Origin: Nitrospirales bacterium
GTDB lineage: Bacteria > Nitrospirota > Nitrospiria > Nitrospirales > UBA8639
Length of the DNA: 64,000 nucleotides
Assembly (NCBI GenBank): GCA_963555755.3
Contig: OY820905.2
Span: 4,320,001 to 4,384,000, forward strand
Direction of reading: 5' to 3'
Shown: piece after piece, positions 50,808 to 64,000 of the stretch
Position numbering within the stretch: the stretch's first letter is position 1
Layout of the letters: each line of letters starts with the position of its first letter
Notes under the pieces: generated by a model
The model's input: the letters and a program-made list of their open reading frames with translations, nothing else
Told to the model about the DNA's origin: nothing
Database searches by the model: none
Translations under genes and position numbers: made by a program

Positions 50808-52767
50808 GGGAATAGGAAATTCAAAAGGCCTTTTTGAGAGAATAGCAAAGTACCAAAGACCTCGTTGAGGATTCAATCCCCAGCTTCGCTGTCCGACATG
50901 CGAGCGTTCATCCTGCGAGGAGGGTCTGACCAGCACATTTTTCTTGGATCGGGCCAGGATGTCGCTCCATTGTGGCGCGTGGGCATGGGAACTGGGCAAA
51001 GGGGGAGTGTCGGTTCGGGTACCGAACCGGAATCCGGGGAGGGATTAGGCTGTTTGCATGAATGCGTCGAGGCGGGCTGGGGCTCGTGGTGGGGCGCGGC
51101 GGGGTAGGCCCAGGTGGCCCAGAATCTTGATGATCACCGCGGGATCCTCGATGCCTGTCCTGAGCCAGCCGAAGGGGCCGCGAGGATGGTCAATGGCCCG
51201 CCGCATTGTGGACAGGTGGTGAGGTCGATGGCGAAGACGCGTTTGAGTCATTGGGCCCAACTCAGGCGGGCTCGTGTGGAAGGAGCGAGGGCATCGCCCT
51301 CCTCATTGGCGGTGTTCGGCGCCGGGTCGGCCTCGCCGGGCACGATCTGGGACCGCAGCGCCGCGTTGGGTGCCAGCACGCCATGGAAACGAATGAGATG
51401 GAGCCGAGGACGTGGGACGAGGGTGGCCAGGCGTTGCAGGAATTCCAGCGGGGTCATCACCAGATGGGTGGTGCCATCGCGGTACGGGGTTTTGAGTTGG
51501 AGGACGACCTCGCCGGCTGGTGTACGGCGCAGGCGTTTATGGCCCAGGGCCGGACGGGTGATGTCGCGACAGCGCTGTTCGAGTTTTTGTCGCTGATGGG
51601 GACCACACCATGTGTCCGCATGCAGACTGAACCCTTGCGCACTGACACACCCCTGGGATTGCGGCATGTCTGGGCTCGCGAGGCGCAACGACGGATCTTT
51701 CCACGTCAGCACTTTTTGGCCGGCTCGGGGGCCAAGGGCAATGCGGTAGGTGCAGGCGGCCGCATGCAGCGGCGCCAAGGCGGGATCGGCATCGGGGTCG
51801 GTCAGATACGGAATCTCGGTGTCTTCCTCCGTGAGCGCACCGTGGCGCGTTAAGGCCTTCAGCAGCCGGGTGATGATCCGCGTGAGGACGGTCTGCAGTT
51901 GGTCAGCGGTAGGGGACGGCACGGGCTGACAGATCGGCCCCCCGTCGGTGAGGCGATAGACGCCATCGAGCATCAGGCAATGCAGATGAATATTGAGATT
52001 GGCGGCGGAGCCAAAGCGTTGGATGCGGTTTGCGCCTGGGCATGGGTCAAGCCGGCTTGGTGGATCACGAAGGTCGAGAGGGCGCGGTGAATGACTTGCA
52101 ACACTGGGGAAAGAAGCTGCGGCTGGGTTGCGAACAGATGCCGCAAGGGGATAGGACACGAGACCAGCCATTGGCGCACGGGCACGTGAGGGATCACCTG
52201 CTCCACCAGATGGGCGGCAGTCTCGGCCATGCGTCTGGCGCCACAGGCCGGGCAAAACCCGCGGCGTTTACAGGAGAAGGCCACCAGCTTCTCATGGGCG
52301 CAGTCCCCACATCGCAGGCGCAGAAACCCGTGCGCTCAGGGCTCGCGAAACAATACCTTCCCATTTTCGCATCCCAGCTTCAGGCCATCTTGAGCCGATC
52401 TTCACTCGCAAAATCCTCAACGTGGGCGTTGCTACGCCTGCGGTTTTGCTCCCTCAGATCGACTCAATCTGACCCAAATCTGGGCGCGAATTCTGGGAAG
52501 GTATTGTTTCGCGAGCCCTCAGATGCTGCCTTCCAGAAATGCCTCGAACTCGTCTTTGACAAACTGAGGCAGCCCCGACCCCGTTTCCTGTTCGACTTGG
52601 GCCAAGAAGGTGTCGACGTGATCTTGGATCACCTGGTAGAGCGTGGTCTCTTCGGGACGGCGGCGTTCGTAGGGAGCCGGGGTGTCATCGGCTGGAGCCG
52701 GGCTCGTGGTCTTGGGGCTCGCGCCACCGCGCGTTGACGGAATCGCTGTTCCCAGGGCCGCCAGCAT
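50808..52767 (-). mobile_element. IS91/ISCR-like rolling-circle element, transposase inactivated
   Basis: YERRRPEET.LY, Zn domain (RC.DC...AFSCKRRGFCPAC), HUH motif NIHLHCL, FSLHA, TPLEFLQRLA.LVP.PRLHLIRFHGV. oriIS-like end CCTTTTGAATTTCCTATTCCC at 50808-50828. Frameshifts and a MITE insertion are present. Confidence 0.85.
52339..52518. mobile_element. MITE family A-related element inside the IS91-like transposase
   Basis: TIR GGGCTCGCGAAACAATACCTTCCCA; TCA TSD. Confidence 0.88.
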
Positions 52768-52785
52768 CGTTCGGGCGCCGTGGGC

Positions 52786-53361
52786 TTAGGTGGGATAGGT
52801 GCGTATCACCGCGATGACCACGGCGGCAATGCGCAGGTGCTGCTTCGGGACAATCGTCGGGAAGTGTGGGTTCGCGGGTTCCAGTAAGACGCGCCGCCCC
52901 CGCTTGCGGAACACTTTCATCGTCCACTCGCCATCGACCTCGGCAATCACGATGTCCCCCGTCTTGGCCTCCTTCCGGCGCTCCACCAGGACGGCATCCC
53001 CTGGGAGAATTCCGGCGTCGATCATGGACTCACCTTGAACCCGAAGTAGGTAGGTGGCCTGCGGGTTGCGGATGAGGTGTGTCTCCAGATTGATGGTGTC
53101 GAGGTGGACCTCTTCCGCCGGCGCGGGGATGCCCGCCTCCACGGTGCCCAACAGGCGAATCTCGGAAAAGTATCGACTGGGCAGGAGCCGCCCGGCGTCG
53201 TCCTGTTGGATCAGGTGGGCGGCGAGGAGCTTCTTAACCAGCTTGGCGGCGGCATTGGTGGAGCGAAACCCGGCCATCCGCATGATTTCCCGGTAGGTAG
53301 GCATGCGCCGGTGCGTGCGGTAGAAGGCGACAATGGCAGGGAAATGGGAGTGGGGTTCCAT
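52786..53361 (-). CDS. lexA: LexA-family repressor (S24 peptidase)
   Basis: wHTH 'MPTYREI...GFRSTNA', Ala-Gly site VEAGIP, catalytic Ser (GESM) and Lys (EWTMK); start ATG 53361. Confidence 0.85.
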   Translation of the reverse strand: MEPHSHFPAIVAFYRTHRRMPTYREIMRMAGFRSTNAAAKLVKKLLAAHLIQQDDAGRLLPSRYFSEIRLLGTVEAGIPAPAEEVHLDTINLETHLIRNPQATYLLRVQGESMIDAGILPGDAVLVERRKEAKTGDIVIAEVDGEWTMKVFRKRGRRVLLEPANPHFPTIVPKQHLRIAAVVIAVIRTYPT

Positions 53362-53370
53362 GAGGGGGCA

Positions 53371-53400
53371 AGGGTAGGGTGAACAGATGTTCACTGTCAA
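53371..53400 (-). promoter_or_regulatory. Sigma70 promoter with a GAAC-N4-GTTC operator between -35 and -10
   Basis: Minus strand TTGACA-GTGAACATCTGTTCAC-CC-TACCCT (18-nt spacer); palindrome at 53379-53394. Confidence 0.72.
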
Positions 53401-58063: not shown

Positions 58064-58951
58064 TTAAGACAGGGCCATGGAGTTTTTGATGACGACCATA
58101 TAATAATAGAATGTAGGCACAGTGAGAAGGAGGCTGTCAATGCGGTCCAAGAATCCTCCATGGCCGGGGATCAAGCTCCCTGAATCTTTGGCTCCGGCCT
58201 GGCGCTTAAACGCGGACTCCGAAAGATCTCCCACGGTGCCCAGAAGGGTCAGTGCGATTCCCAAGATCACGCAATCGGCCACGGTGAATGTCGGTAAAAA
58301 CCAGAGGCTTGCCATCCATGCGATGAGCGTGGCGCCAATCAAACCACCCACTAAGCCTTCGATGGTTTTCTTGGGGCTCAGGATGGGGGCCAAGGGTCGA
58401 GAGCCAAAACCCCTGCCGACGAAATAGGCGGCGGCATCTCCACCCCACGTGACCAGCAAGACAAAAAATATCAAAAATGGGCCGTCCGGGAGTGTTCGAA
58501 TCCTGAGGAAATGGCCGAGGGTGAGACTGATATAGAACACGCCGAACAAGAGCATGGGAATATTGCCGAACGATGGTGAGGGCGCCATCCACACTTGATA
58601 GGCAATCAGCACGGCAAGGATGGTAATACAAGTCGTGTGAAATCCGATCAAAGCCGGCCATTGCAGGGAGACCAAGATGATGCCTCCGCAGAAGAGCCCA
58701 ACGAGCGATGATTGCCGGTGGTGTTCGTCTACAAAAGTGAGACTGTAAAATTCCCACATGGCCAAACATGAAACGACTGTGATGAGGATAAAGAAAAAGA
58801 TGGGAGGTAAGTGACGCGTGAGAAGATAAAACAGAGGAACAAACACCAGCGCGGAGTACACCCGTTTGGGATCAAACGGTTTTGGCGGTTCTGAGGGAAT
58901 CAGGTCTGGAGTCTTCGAAGATGAGGGTGAGGAACCGGCATGAGGTTTCAC
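58064..58951 (-). CDS. cdsA: Phosphatidate cytidylyltransferase
   Basis: SPKKTIEG, GDLSES.FKR..G.KDSG.LIPGHGG.LDR.DS; likely GTG start overlapping the uppS stop. Confidence 0.95.
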   Translation of the reverse strand: MKPHAGSSPSSSKTPDLIPSEPPKPFDPKRVYSALVFVPLFYLLTRHLPPIFFFILITVVSCLAMWEFYSLTFVDEHHRQSSLVGLFCGGIILVSLQWPALIGFHTTCITILAVLIAYQVWMAPSPSFGNIPMLLFGVFYISLTLGHFLRIRTLPDGPFLIFFVLLVTWGGDAAAYFVGRGFGSRPLAPILSPKKTIEGLVGGLIGATLIAWMASLWFLPTFTVADCVILGIALTLLGTVGDLSESAFKRQAGAKDSGSLIPGHGGFLDRIDSLLLTVPTFYYYMVVIKNSMALS

Positions 58952-59745
58952 GAGCCACGTTGCGAGGAAGCGGTCTGAGACACACGTCCAAACCGACGAT
59001 CTCGTTTTTGGTAATCCAGTAGGGCCAAGAGTACCTCTCGACGCCGAAAGTCTGGCCACTGGACTTTGGTGAAGTGCAATTCCGTATAGGCAAGTTGCCA
59101 AAGAAGAAAATTGCTGATCCGGGCCTCGCCACTGGTGCGAATCAGCAAATCCGGGTCGGGCAAGTCAGCCGTCGTTAGATACTGTTCAAATTGGCCTTCC
59201 GTGATAGGGATAGAGACCTTCCCGTTGCGAGCGTCCTCCAGCAGGTCATTGACCGCATCAATGATTTCCGATCGGCCACCGTAACTCAAGGCGACGGTTA
59301 ATATCCGGTCGGTGAAATGTGCAGTTTCTTCCGCGACATCATTGACCACGGCTTGGGTGGATATTGGTAAGGCGTTCAAGCGACCGATCGGCAAAAATCG
59401 CATTTTCCGATCTTGGAATGTTTGTCGCTCCTTTTGAAGAAATTGCTCAAGAAGGGTCATCAGTAAGGCAACTTCCGCGCGTGGCCGGTTCCAGTTTTCC
59501 TGAGAGAAGGCGTAAATGGTAAGAATGGGAATCGATAATTCGTCGAAAAAGTTAATGACCTCACGGAGGGCTGACAGCCCTTCCCGATGGCCGGCAATGC
59601 GGGGCAGGCCTCGCGAAGCGGCCCATCGTCCATTCCCGTCCATGATGATCGCGACATGGCGAGGCATGAGGTCAGGCTCAAGGCTCAACTGCAGCTCCTG
59701 CTCAGTGAGTTCCGAATGAATATCCGGTGCTGAAAATGTGTCCAT
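58948..59745 (-). CDS. uppS: Isoprenyl transferase (undecaprenyl diphosphate synthase)
   Basis: HVAIIMDGNGRWA, YAFS.ENW.RP, DLLIRTSGE.RISNFLLWQ; start set at ATG 59745. Confidence 0.96.
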   Translation of the reverse strand: MDTFSAPDIHSELTEQELQLSLEPDLMPRHVAIIMDGNGRWAASRGLPRIAGHREGLSALREVINFFDELSIPILTIYAFSQENWNRPRAEVALLMTLLEQFLQKERQTFQDRKMRFLPIGRLNALPISTQAVVNDVAEETAHFTDRILTVALSYGGRSEIIDAVNDLLEDARNGKVSIPITEGQFEQYLTTADLPDPDLLIRTSGEARISNFLLWQLAYTELHFTKVQWPDFRRREVLLALLDYQKRDRRFGRVSQTASSQRGS

Positions 59746-59930
59746 GCTGTCCAGGAAAGACCTTACGTAGAAACGATCCCCTCGAAAGGGGGATACGACA
59801 TAAAAACTAAGTCTAATCGGCATGTTCGGTCTTGTCAATCTTCTCTAAGCAGGTCCACGCATTTTTCATTGAGTCTATGCTGTGGGGGTTAATTGAGACC
59901 GTCGTGACAAATAGCCTTTCCAGGTTCAGC

Positions 59931-60725
59931 GTTCGTGGGTTAAAGGGTTCACGGTTGAGAGTGAAAGAGGTGTTAAGATTGATTTGTTTGAACATATTGA
60001 AGTTGGCAAAAGGACGATGCGAAGTTTCTAGAGCCAAACCCTGAACCTTTCAACGTTGAACCTGAAAATGCTGACAATTGCGTCACTGTGTTCGTGGGTT
60101 AAAGGGTTCACGGTTGAGAGTGAAAGAGGTGTTAAGATTGATTTGTTTGAACATATTGAAGTTGGCAAAAGGACGATGCGAAGTTTCTAGAGCCAAACCC
60201 TGAACCTTTCAACGTTGAACCTGAAAATGCTGACAATTGCGTCACTGTGTTCGTGGGTTAAAGGGTTCACGGTTGAGAGTGAAAGAGGTGTTAAGATTGA
60301 TTTGTTTGAACATATTGAAGTTGGCAAAAGGACGATGCGAAGTTTCTAGAGCCAAACCCTGAACCTTTCAACGTTGAACCTGAAAATGCTGACAATTGCG
60401 TCACTGTGTTCGTGGGTTAAAGGGTTCACGGTTGAGAGTGAAAGAGGTGTTAAGATTGATTTGTTTGAACATATTGAAGTTGGCAAAAGGACGATGCGAA
60501 GTTTCTAGAGCCAAACCCTGAACCTTTCAACGTTGAACCTGAAAATGCTGACAATTGCGTCACTGTGTTCGTGGGTTAAAGGGTTCACGGTTGAGAGTGA
60601 AAGAGGTGTTAAGATTGATTTGTTTGAACATATTGAAGTTGGCAAAAGGACGATGCGAAGTTTCTAGAGCCAAACCCTGAACCTTTCAACGTTGAACCTG
60701 AAAATGCTGACAATTGCGTCACTGT
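59931..60725. repeat. Five identical tandem 159-bp units
   Basis: Units start at 59931, 60090, 60249, 60408 and 60567; no variable spacers. Confidence 0.95.
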
Positions 60726-61409
60726 AAGGCCTCGGTTATACCTCAGTTTTTCCGTGAAGTCGAAGAATTGCTGGCCGAACGCGGCATCACCGTCACCTAT
60801 GAAACCGTTCGTCAATGGTGCCGAAAGTTTGAGTCGGTCGATGCGAGGAAATTGAAGAAGCGACAAGGTCGTCTCGGTGATACGTGGCATCTTGATGAAG
60901 TGTTTGTGTCCATCCACGGCGAACAGCAGTATCTCTGGCGAGCCATGGATCAAGACGGCGATACCATTGATATGTTGGTGCAACGCCGACGCAATACACA
61001 AGCGGCGGTCCGCTTCTTCCGCCGCTTACTGAAAGGCCAAGGCCGTGAGCCGCGCTGGATGATCACCGACACACTCAAAAGCTACGGGGCCGCACACCGG
61101 GCCGTCAGGCCGACCGTCGAGCATATCAATGCGGTCTACGCCAATAACCGAGTTGAAGTGTCACACCAACCCACGCGGCAACAAGAATATCATATGCGAG
61201 GGTTTTCTTCAGCAACTCACGCTCAACGGTTTTTGACGTTACACGGACTCACACAGAATCTCTTTCGTCTCGGCCGCCACCTCATGCAGACGGTCCATTA
61301 TCGACTGTTGCGCACCCAGGCCTTTCAGGTCTGGGAGGCAGCGGTGTGCGCATAAGCAGCTTGGGGTAGCTGGTTCAATGTGCCCATCGATCGTGAAGTT
61401 GACAATACC
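60726..61409 (+). mobile_element. IS6-family element, 5'-truncated
   Basis: FREVEELLAERGITVTYETVRQW, WHLDE, YLWRA.D, ITD, NNRVE.SH; right IR AAGTTGACAATACC at 61396-61409. Confidence 0.88.
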
Positions 61410-61570
61410 CCAGGGCGTTATGGGCAAATACCATCAAGGCCATTGCGGGCCGCGTGCAGAGTTTTGGGCCGTTAAATGGTTGGCGGAATTCTGATTCGTG
61501 CTTGTTCAGTTTCCTGAGACTCTGGTTCGGGCGGCCACAGACATTGTTGTATTCGCTGCGGAATGACGCC

Positions 61571-62119
61571 TTATTGATTAATGGTGTATTTGACATTCCA
61601 GTACTTGTCACTACTGTTCCACGATTTTTGGCAGGCGATCGTACAGGTCGCACACAGATTAACCAGGCTGGCTGTTTTGCAATCGTACGGCGTAAAAAAT
61701 GTAGCTTCGCCGCCTCTAAGCTGGAAATTGCCAATTTGGAACGAGCAAACGGCCGCAGCCGTGGTTGCACCAGTGTCCATTTCTAGCTTAACCAGGACAT
61801 CTTTTGAAGAACTAGTTATGGCCGTGGAGATACCGAAGTTTTGATGATCTTTATCGCCTGGTGAGAGTTCCAGGGTGTTTTTCAAATTGCCGTCTCTGAG
61901 GTACCTGACTGAAAACGTCATGTCGGTATTGTTTTTTATTCTGACCTTCGCTTTTTTAGCTTTTAAACCGGGGCCCGATTTCTCCGTGTAAACACAGTTT
62001 CCTGCCATTGCTGTCGATGCTAAGGCAATTCCGCATAGCATGCTGAACATCAGGATTGAACAGATCATTTTCCCGGTTTGGTTGTTAAGTCCCATAGCAG
62101 AAACCTCCTTGTTGGCCAA
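61571..62119 (-). CDS. Secreted hypothetical protein
   Basis: Hydrophobic signal (…ASTAMA|G) and a Cys-containing mature part. The true start may be the internal Met (MGLNNQ) after AAGGAGG. Confidence 0.65.
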   Translation of the reverse strand: MANKEVSAMGLNNQTGKMICSILMFSMLCGIALASTAMAGNCVYTEKSGPGLKAKKAKVRIKNNTDMTFSVRYLRDGNLKNTLELSPGDKDHQNFGISTAITSSSKDVLVKLEMDTGATTAAAVCSFQIGNFQLRGGEATFFTPYDCKTASLVNLCATCTIACQKSWNSSDKYWNVKYTINQ

Positions 62120-62212
62120 TCGGTGTATATTAGGAAGGATTTAGGTAATATACCCAGAAATCCATCGCTATTGAGTAGCTCGTTCTCGAAACCATTTACC
62201 TTGCTCGTTGCG

Positions 62213-62750
62213 TCACCCTCTAAATTTTGCGACCCGATGATGCATGTGTCTTTGTTCTAGTCCTTCTTGCTCAAAGTGATTGTGAGCTTTTCCACCGTCA
62301 TGGTGGGCATGAACTGTTCCATCAATATAGCAAGGTGTGTTGTCAATCAAATCCTTCATGAATACATCATCTATGTTTAGGATCATGGTGGATGCTTCAA
62401 CTGCAGTTTTGAAAACCTGTTGTTTTGCAGCCACTGTTTCTATGATTTCAGATGATGACACGCCAGATATTTTCCTCAGGTTGGAATTAATCTCACCCCA
62501 TTTCACATTTCCATTATACTAGATACTAGACTTTGAAATTTTGTCCATAATAGTATTAAAGTAACTAATACATTCATCCCTAAATTACGTGCTAATGTCA
62601 ATGGTATTTCCTCTCCAGCATCAGCAAATCTCTCTACTGCGATTTGCTCCTTACTTTCAACAGTTCCAGCTCGCTGACTAATTTTTAGTACTACAATCCC
62701 CTCAGCAGAACCAGCACCATGTACAAGGAACAGATTTTCCTCATGGTACA
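62213..62750 (-). pseudogene. Decayed 3' fragment of a group II chaperonin (thermosome), thaumarchaeal-like
   Basis: GAGSAE...EQIAVERFADA.EEIPLTLARN.GM, then a frameshift, then IIET..KQQVFKTAVEASTMILNIDDVFMKDLIDN...DGTVHAHHDGGKAHNHFEQEGLEQR. AT-rich. Confidence 0.75.
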
Positions 62751-63076
62751 ACGCTTCCAAGTGAATGTGGAAGTCAGAGACTTCAACGCCGGTAGGGAAG
62801 AAGTCTGTCTTAGTGATATTGGCCTTAGCGAAAGCCACTTGTGCCGATGTGCCCGTGTGCTGCGATGTTGATTCCTCGGGTTATCGCAGATACGAAGCCG
62901 TGGCTATACCGTAAGGTGGGGTGGGACCAAGGTCTGACCTGATGACACAGCCATAGCCAGGCAGGGCCTTTAAAAAAACCCGCCAGTTTCTCAAATTTTA
63001 TCAATCTAAAACGTGAGATGGGAGGAAGAATATGAAAATACAAACAATCATATGGCTTGGGTCTGGGGTCAGGTCT

Positions 63077-64000
63077 CAATACTGTTCACTTAGATGAAAA
63101 TCTGTTATGCTTCGCCTCCACACGTAATCTGGGAGGAGGCAACATGGCAAGAAAGAAAGTCGGCTTGGGGGCGGGGGCTCGATTGGCGGATTATTTGAGC
63201 ACGGGATTACTGGCTCGTGCCTTTCCGGTGGCCATCATCAACGAAGAACTTGACGCACATCATTGTAACAGTGAACGTGTCCGCACCTTTCCCGCTTCTG
63301 CCGTGGTGTACTACACCATGGCGTTGAGCTTATACAGCGAGGCCGCGTACGAAGCGGTGTTTGCCGCTGTGGCCCAAGGGCTGGCCTGGCAAGACCAGCA
63401 ACCTGTGGCTCCCGTGAGCGTTGTCAAATCCGCCATCAGCAAAGCCCGCTCACGGCTGACGTGGCAGGCGCTGAAAGCCATTGGGCAGCGCTGCTTGCGC
63501 CCGTTGGCTCGTCCAGAGCATGCCCACGCCTTTTTTGCAGGCTACCGACTCGTCGCGATAGATGGCTCCAACTTTGAGGTCCCGGATGAGGAAGCCACTG
63601 TGCAAGCCTTTGGGTACCCAGGGAGCCGAACCGGGCAGGCCGGCTACCCCCAAGCCCAGTGCGCCATTTTGACGGAATGTGCCAGTCACGCCATTTTGGA
63701 TGCCGAACTAGGGGCCTATAAGCAGGCCGAATGGGAGGTGGCCGCGCCCTTGGTGCGTCGCCTCACGCCCGACATGCTCTGCATGGCCGATCGCGGCTTT
63801 GTCGGGTACGCCCATTGGCAGGCCGGCCTTCAGACCGGAGCGCAACTGCTCTGGCGCATGCCGAAGCACTTGCTCCTTCCGGTTGACAAGCTGTTGGACG
63901 ATGGCTCGTACCTGAGCCGTCTGTACCCCAGTGAACGCGCCAGAAGAAAGCGAATCGATGGGATCGCCCTCAGGGTGATTGAGTATGTCTTACCGCAGGG
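63077..64000 (+). mobile_element. IS4-family element (transposase from ATG 63144, runs off right edge)
   Basis: End CAATACTGTTCACTTA; RBS GGAGG; MARKKVGL...SAISKARSRL...RLVAIDGS...YPQ...ADRGF. Confidence 0.88.

Follow-up and report, generated by a model that had tools for sequence, protein, structure and literature searches.

The chromosome of a Nitrospirales bacterium, predicted from its full-length NxrA (best solved match 7b04_B) to be a nitrite oxidiser, carries a broken 503-nt piece of a thermosome gene, which is almost certainly DNA of a Nitrosopumilaceae archaeon acquired by real inter-domain transfer. The piece lies in the window, the 64,000-nt stretch of contig OY820905.2 analysed here (positions 4,320,001 to 4,384,000). 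The host genome comprises 4.62 Mb in two contigs and is 99.4% complete and 0.83% contaminated, and the cluster to which its Dxr belongs contains members named Nitrospirales and Nitrospirota. The transfer is young—recent but fixed—and represents a known kind of event in an unusually fresh state.

The usual evidence for archaea-to-bacteria transfer is an inference from old protein trees, and a high-identity case in a metagenome assembly is generally attributed to contamination. In the present case, the foreign DNA retains 93% identity to that of the donor group, its junctions are bridged, and different strains show stepwise decay. The case shows that a nitrite oxidiser does acquire chromosomal DNA from ammonia-oxidising archaea, its partners in nitrification, on a short timescale. 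The fragment, itself likely inert, is useful as a gene-flow marker and a neutral clock for the host lineage.

The features around the fragment are as follows (L105, L106 and L108 are contigs of related strains, described below):

58948–59838, minus strand: host uppS-like gene, left anchor of the variable spacer; 98% identical in L106 and L108.
59931–60725, no strand: 159-nt unit repeated head to tail in five perfect copies, lying between uppS and the IS6 element; absent from L106 and L108.
60714–61410, plus strand: IS6-family element (NF033587 above cut-off); absent from L105, L106 and L108.
61571–62095, minus strand: intact gene for a 174-aa Cys-rich protein with a signal-peptide-like N-terminus; not archaeal by blastn.
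62237–62739, minus strand: thermosome fragment, pseudogene; ends set by blastn on the closest archaeal loci, with tblastn and tree.
62237–62515, minus strand: second piece of the fragment, donor residues 469–561 with the His-rich tail; tblastn 90% over 93 aa.
62516–62530, no strand: frameshift duplication, a 7-nt tandem with a net gain of 11 nt over the archaeal gene in alignment.
62536–62739, minus strand: first piece of the fragment, donor residues 398–465; tblastn 84% over 68 aa, with Pfam and NCBIfam matches.
62740–63060, no strand: unassigned spacer, 321 nt, 48% GC, single copy; not archaeal by tblastx.
63065–63074, plus strand: motif resembling the terminal inverted repeat (TIR) of a tyrosine-transposase (TIRtron-type) element end; fits the GGGGWSAS consensus given in the available part of PMC3733652.
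63077–64000, plus strand: IS4-family element (NF033592 above cut-off), with many copies in the genome; runs off the window.

The original prediction, made from the sequence alone, placed two frameshifted pieces with chaperonin motifs and a His-rich tail at 62213–62750. Six-frame translation bears this out: two minus-strand pieces in different frames carry the quoted tail, with TPCYI standing between its two halves, and the first piece shares the frame of the open reading frame at 62503–62838. Both match the Pfam TCP-1/thermosome models (E 2e-5 and 7e-11) and the NCBIfam archaeal thermosome model TIGR02339 (E 3e-6 and 1e-11), the latter with scores of 26 and 44 bits against a cut-off of 671, far below what a full-length protein requires. 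Homology to archaeal loci at the DNA level runs from 62739 to 62237, slightly inside the predicted interval. Against full-length 563-aa thermosomes, the fragment reaches E 2e-44 in a 5.8-billion-protein database, which excludes a chance match. It covers codons 398–561 of a 563-codon His-tailed Nitrosopumilaceae thermosome paralogue, or 29% of the gene, beginning mid-gene without a start codon and lacking the last two codons and the stop. Its GC content is 38.6% against 50.9% for the chromosome, and when 500-nt windows are ranked by archaeal 5-mer likeness it belongs to the top 0.1%.

A full-length group II chaperonin was taken to have about 520–560 aa, an ATP-binding GDGTT motif and an apical domain. 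The fragment resembles the models; however, with only residues 398–561 of 563, it has neither the full length nor the GDGTT motif and apical domain, and it has no uninterrupted frame under purifying selection. By descent it is a member of the His-tailed paralogue family, but it fails as a working thermosome gene. The rest of the gene was not found elsewhere in the host genome, where two of the four matches proved to be GroEL; the host GroEL is itself uninterrupted and intact.

The donor group agrees with the predicted source, a thermosome paralogue of Nitrososphaeria. Of the 1184 candidates from a search with the tail piece, 1145 are longer proteins, headed by 563-aa chaperonins at 88%–89% identity, and taxon names among the 120 homologues listed are archaeal throughout (Nitrosopumilus, Nitrosarchaeum, and kin). 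All 44 confirmed loci from a one-genome-per-species collection (130 pattern matches) are titled as Nitrososphaeria-type archaea. The His-rich tail motif is present in 119 of the 120 homologues listed and in the window, whose copy has lost two histidines. At the DNA level, L053, the closest of the archaeal contigs, agrees with the window at 457 of 491 aligned nucleotides (93.1%).

A DNA tree of 41 rows kept 38 of 97 archaeal loci, rows aligned over fewer than 470 nt and duplicates being omitted. It groups the window copy with two related copies from bacteria in a single clade (support 100/99), which nests together with L050, L053, and L054 in a larger one (100/98) surrounded by named Nitrosopumilaceae rows. 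Both the tail and this nesting point to the His-tailed third paralogue as the origin of the DNA. None of 401 Nitrosopumilaceae genomes exceeds 82%, and hence the set searched holds no genome of the donor species; the blastn relatives at 89%–91% are metagenome contigs.

In one archaeal genome, G761, the donor-type gene is a third thermosome copy, 39%–45% identical to the other two. It adjoins a symporter-like gene and lies about 7 kb from urease-like genes (labels read from translations). Zhong et al. 2020 (PMC7265257) describe an extra thermosome copy, and the donor paralogue appears, from its neighbourhood, to fit this gene of MTA1 as given in the available part of that source. The copy studied here differs in comprising only 29% of the gene, broken, and in residing in a bacterium. 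The large subunit encoded by the urease-like genes of G761 (L181:4333–10344) shares 62% protein identity with a host gene (C1:207459–209195) and is the third-best DNA match genome-wide between G761 and the host; the host copy has host-like GC, and any urease transfer would therefore be old. Across 12 archaeal loci compared, no other DNA from the donor neighbourhood was found in the host genome.

As far as contigs show, the fragment is integrated in the chromosome. In each of runs X19, X21, and X23, one contig spans at least 61335–63088 with 0 differences; X19 and X21 derive from one sample, X23 from another study, and the assembly may itself have been built from these runs, which match it best. 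The junction-spanning contigs have depths of 23.5, 47.8, and 61.9, respectively, against 20.6, 53.8, and 42.2 for the contig on the uppS side. Contigs thus span both junctions at host depth, which favours a genuine insertion. For the window's own strain, none of the Logan contigs reaches through the 159-nt array as far as uppS. A third study, sediment run X1, contains a strain about 94%–95% identical, in which one contig crosses the junction at 62739 and a second crosses that at 62237, albeit only 30 nt into the fragment and one base short of the bridging rule.

Diverged copies in host context occur in 6 of 60 metagenome loci (L103–L106, L108, and L109), all retrieved with the 3′ piece and possibly from one campaign. 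Five of the six share the 3′ end of the window copy and are followed by the 174-aa gene. The 5′ end is shared by L104, and in L106 and L108 the contig extends as far as uppS and cdsA at 98% identity. The same fragment ends recur in every bacterial copy that covers them. An assembly chimera, or contamination from a co-occurring archaeon, would join parts through unsupported junctions and bring in a foreign part identical to a genome from the same runs. An archaeon with the paralogue is indeed abundant in X19, X21, and X23, at 12 to 75 times the host depth, but it differs at 35 of 234 nt and is therefore not the source. Contigs that bridge the junctions at host depth show 0 differences, other data sets hold diverged copies at this locus, and the bacterial copies have lesions in common; the chimera is rejected as extremely improbable. 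The original prediction had rested the case for a real, old insertion on decay; integration is best proved by the bridged junctions and the shared ends of diverged copies rather than by decay alone. 'Real' stands, whereas 'old' is relative, the bacterial branch having changed by about 4.6%.

Decay is nevertheless evident throughout. The sole frameshift in the fragment sits at the short duplication, where all bacterial copies covering the site have extra bases of differing lengths: +11 in the window (the frameshift), +9 with a stop in L103 and L104, +12 in L109, and about +6 in X1, counted from indel rows. Individual copies have further breaks of their own, comprising a 63-nt deletion in L104 and single-base indels in L103, L104, and L109, and a host repeat is inserted in the copies of L105, L106, and L109. 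Where the donor has H-C-H, kept in 118 of the 120 homologues listed, the window has P-C-Y. Six changed codons are common to other bacterial copies, including the H-to-P change in this near-invariant motif; a shared Q-to-H change falls where 120 of 120 homologues listed have Q. Over the 348 sites at which four close archaeal copies agree, the bacterial branch has 15 nonsynonymous changes versus 1 synonymous. This ratio is compatible with neutrality (p 0.34) and differs from that of one archaeal pair (5:11; p 0.0006); dN/dS among the four closest archaeal copies is 0.08–0.13. The fragment very probably has no protein function and is a decaying, non-functional pseudogene.

The change on the bacterial branch is similar to the synonymous distance to sister strains: bacterial copies differ by at most 5%, and uppS and cdsA have synonymous distances of 0.03–0.06 between the same strains. 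The fragment was not found in 60 GTDB relatives (by DNA) or in 5 congeners, the closest of which (G005), 64% complete and with a contig ending 225 nt beyond uppS, may still carry it. By protein, none of 400 other genomes of the order matches at E 1e-30. We infer with confidence a single acquisition in a common ancestor, shortly before the strains split, followed by vertical decay. That the transfer crossed domains into a nitrifier, as originally proposed, agrees with the archaeal donor group and the full-length NxrA of the host; donor and host presumably lived side by side at the time.

The fragment occupies a variable spacer between tldD and uppS (gene names read from translations, without family search). 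In congeners, the same spacer holds no long open reading frame (G003), a different small gene beside uppS (G006), or a PIN-type pair (G002). The 321-nt spacer upstream of the fragment is present in X1, and its last 38 nt are present in L104. The 174-aa gene starts 142 nt downstream of the fragment on the same strand and is found only in the host lineage; it is intact in all related contigs covering it, with a dN/dS of 1.3–2.0. Its product has a conserved scaffold with hypervariable patches and, judged by sequence, looks like a surface protein under diversifying selection. The predicted IS-rich setting does not explain the capture: IS6 is missing from three related contigs that carry the fragment, and therefore inserted later and is rejected as the vehicle. 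The IS-rich look is thus at least partly later, and the IS6 element and the 159-nt array are later or strain-specific, since both are missing from L106 and L108. The remainder of the spacer, just beyond the window (L110:5057–11110), is taken up by two IS4 copies, one IS1595, the remnant of a tyrosine transposase, and a gene for a glutaminase. Elsewhere in the window, a LexA/S24-type gene and a Y2-type transposase fragment adjoin proS (51248–53400).

For the route of entry, a moderately likely course is DNA uptake with illegitimate recombination. Loose DNA of a Nitrosopumilaceae archaeon would have been taken up from the surroundings by the bacterial ancestor, and a 503-nt piece would have been joined by illegitimate recombination into the tldD–uppS spacer, after which it would have drifted away as a pseudogene in the descendant strains. 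This course is favoured because the fragment ends, which fall mid-gene and are blunt against three archaeal copies, have neither flanking duplication nor inverted repeat, because ComEC and DprA are intact in the host and above cut-off, and because the host has no Ku and viral contigs yielded no relative of the donor protein. The presence of ComEC and DprA is, however, no proof of competence, each being found in 10 of 14 control genomes, and no empty allele—a recipient site without the fragment—was found in the relatives or congeners searched. In what is available of bioRxiv 10.1101/2023.11.22.568220, SPDIR in Acinetobacter baylyi likewise involves non-homologous foreign DNA with blunt, gene-blind ends, but its patches measure 3 to about 100 bp, a size that 503 nt exceeds. 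A larger insert may also have entered and eroded back to the ends seen now. Ku-type end joining was rejected, the host genome having no Ku. Taken as a whole, one entry, likely by uptake and illegitimate recombination, of a piece that is likely non-functional is a reasonably probable account.

The main alternative is that the piece arrived as cargo of a TIRtron-type tyrosine-transposase element, or was inserted by the enzyme of such an element, and was shortened afterwards; a 5-kb archaeal-like island elsewhere in the genome would then have come in by the same means. The TIR-like motif speaks for this, since about 1% of 20,000 random placements come as close as its 326 nt to the fragment, as do a transposase remnant just beyond IS4 and outside the window, and the second island, which such ends bracket directly (L227:8190–13350). 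At the thermosome locus, however, the motif stands on one side only and is separated from the fragment by the 321-nt non-archaeal spacer; the L104 sequence departs from that of the window 38 nt upstream of the fragment, and mobile ends accumulate in variable spacers in any case. Among 215 archaeal loci, a whole chromosome included, none has a transposase of this kind. The available part of PMC3733652, which leaves TIRtron mobility itself untried, does not describe cargo capture by TIRtrons/TIRYT. Entry by this means is accordingly unlikely. Quite improbable, in turn, is that a larger archaeal segment arrived by way of a virus, plasmid, or vesicle, possibly via another bacterial species, and was reduced by deletions to the present piece: marine viruses with thermosome-like genes exist, as reported in the accessible part of PMC5649160, and the locus is heavily rearranged between strains, but no relatives of the donor protein were found among viral contigs, the host has no other DNA of the donor neighbourhood, and the ends are the same in every copy covering them.

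A further alternative concerns the fate of the fragment rather than its arrival, namely that the protein is dead and the AT-rich 3′ end of the fragment has been recruited by the 174-aa gene to serve as its promoter or 5′ region. The 3′ end is kept in five of the six related contigs, in which 5′ parts are deleted or interrupted, although retention is biased by the use of the 3′ piece in retrieval. Between the window and L104, the last 134 nt are alike at 130 of 133 positions versus 231 of 249 in the mid part; this difference is non-significant (Fisher p 0.057), and the mid part contains the unstable duplication. No minus-strand sigma-70-like site lies in 61400–63060, which has one plus-strand site where 3.0 are expected by chance. 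Co-option is thus very unlikely.

The direction of transfer is that of the archaellum of Chloroflexota, passed from archaea to bacteria (bioRxiv 10.1101/2025.02.02.636118), and of the group III thermosome-like chaperonins of bacteria (PMC12696368), the latter also belonging to the same protein superfamily. In both, as far as the available parts of these sources describe them, whole genes are traced through protein trees, whereas the present case is a decaying fragment with 93% DNA identity in one small lineage. Assignment to group III, which would require a whole gene in a separate bacterial clade, is rejected on the nesting inside Nitrosopumilaceae and the empty protein search of 400 genomes. 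The accessible part of PMC10753782 treats transfers of utp, cynS, and focA/nirC among nitrifiers as bacteria-to-archaea or ancient joint acquisitions in terrestrial lineages. Those cases share with ours DNA common to ammonia-oxidising archaea and Nitrospira-type bacteria; in contrast, the transfer described here is archaea-to-bacteria and recent. The available part of a comparative genomics paper on Nitrospirales (PMC12342949) makes no mention of thermosomes, and no report of the fragment transfer was found in the open literature searched.

When the whole G761 genome (1.885 Mb) was compared with that of the host, the thermosome piece ranked first among 44 matches. Most others have host-like GC and are 64%–80% identical, as expected of conserved genes. 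Two short non-coding matches (94% over 48 nt and 87% over 63 nt) led to a second island at C1:2168190–2173350, which is 5 kb long with 37% GC and has the best archaeal 5-mer score in the genome. It encodes a protein with cupredoxin repeats, a PQQ propeller, and a MopE motif, the gene being split by a host IS1380 with target duplication; several IS1380 copies elsewhere are more than 99.5% alike. The intergenic DNA of the island matches 11 of 251 Nitrosopumilaceae genomes at 78%–97% (a twelfth matches the MopE part only) and none of 150 other genomes of the host order, in which the two matches seen were an IS end and MopE. The C-terminal domain of the island protein matches 15 of 201 archaeal genomes at 27%–37%. 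Against an archaeal source, that domain is also found in 2 of 200 genomes of the host order, and the propeller has no match at E 1e-20 in 201 genomes of the archaeal class. The best relative of the protein is P0290 (62%), a search for full-protein homologues was swamped by MopE-repeat proteins, and Atlas searches gave only leads below 0.9. On composition and these matches, the island is probably archaeal in origin, in which case the route can deliver whole genes. By blastx, 20 other AT-rich segments gave no close archaeal match and one weak match at 27%.

It is doubtful, albeit conceivable, that the lineage repeatedly captures DNA of ammonia-oxidising archaeal partners with TIRtron ends as a tool. 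The thermosome scrap would then be an eroded capture and the 5-kb island a fresher one, whole until IS1380 split it. Were this so, an active archaea-to-bacteria gene pipeline would operate inside the nitrifying consortium, and the role of TIRtrons as carriers of cargo would, to our knowledge, be the first known.

Three tandem reverse-transcriptase genes, group II intron-like, lie just upstream of the second island (L227:212–6450). In two genomes from another genus of the host family, a 200-aa protein (L243:1417–2016 and L244:1456–2055) is related to the C-terminal domain of the island protein and is perhaps an older archaeal acquisition. Finally, many Nitrosopumilaceae genomes share a conserved non-coding motif about 50 nt long (L194:3914–3961; L229–L235), which may be an undescribed repeat or small RNA.
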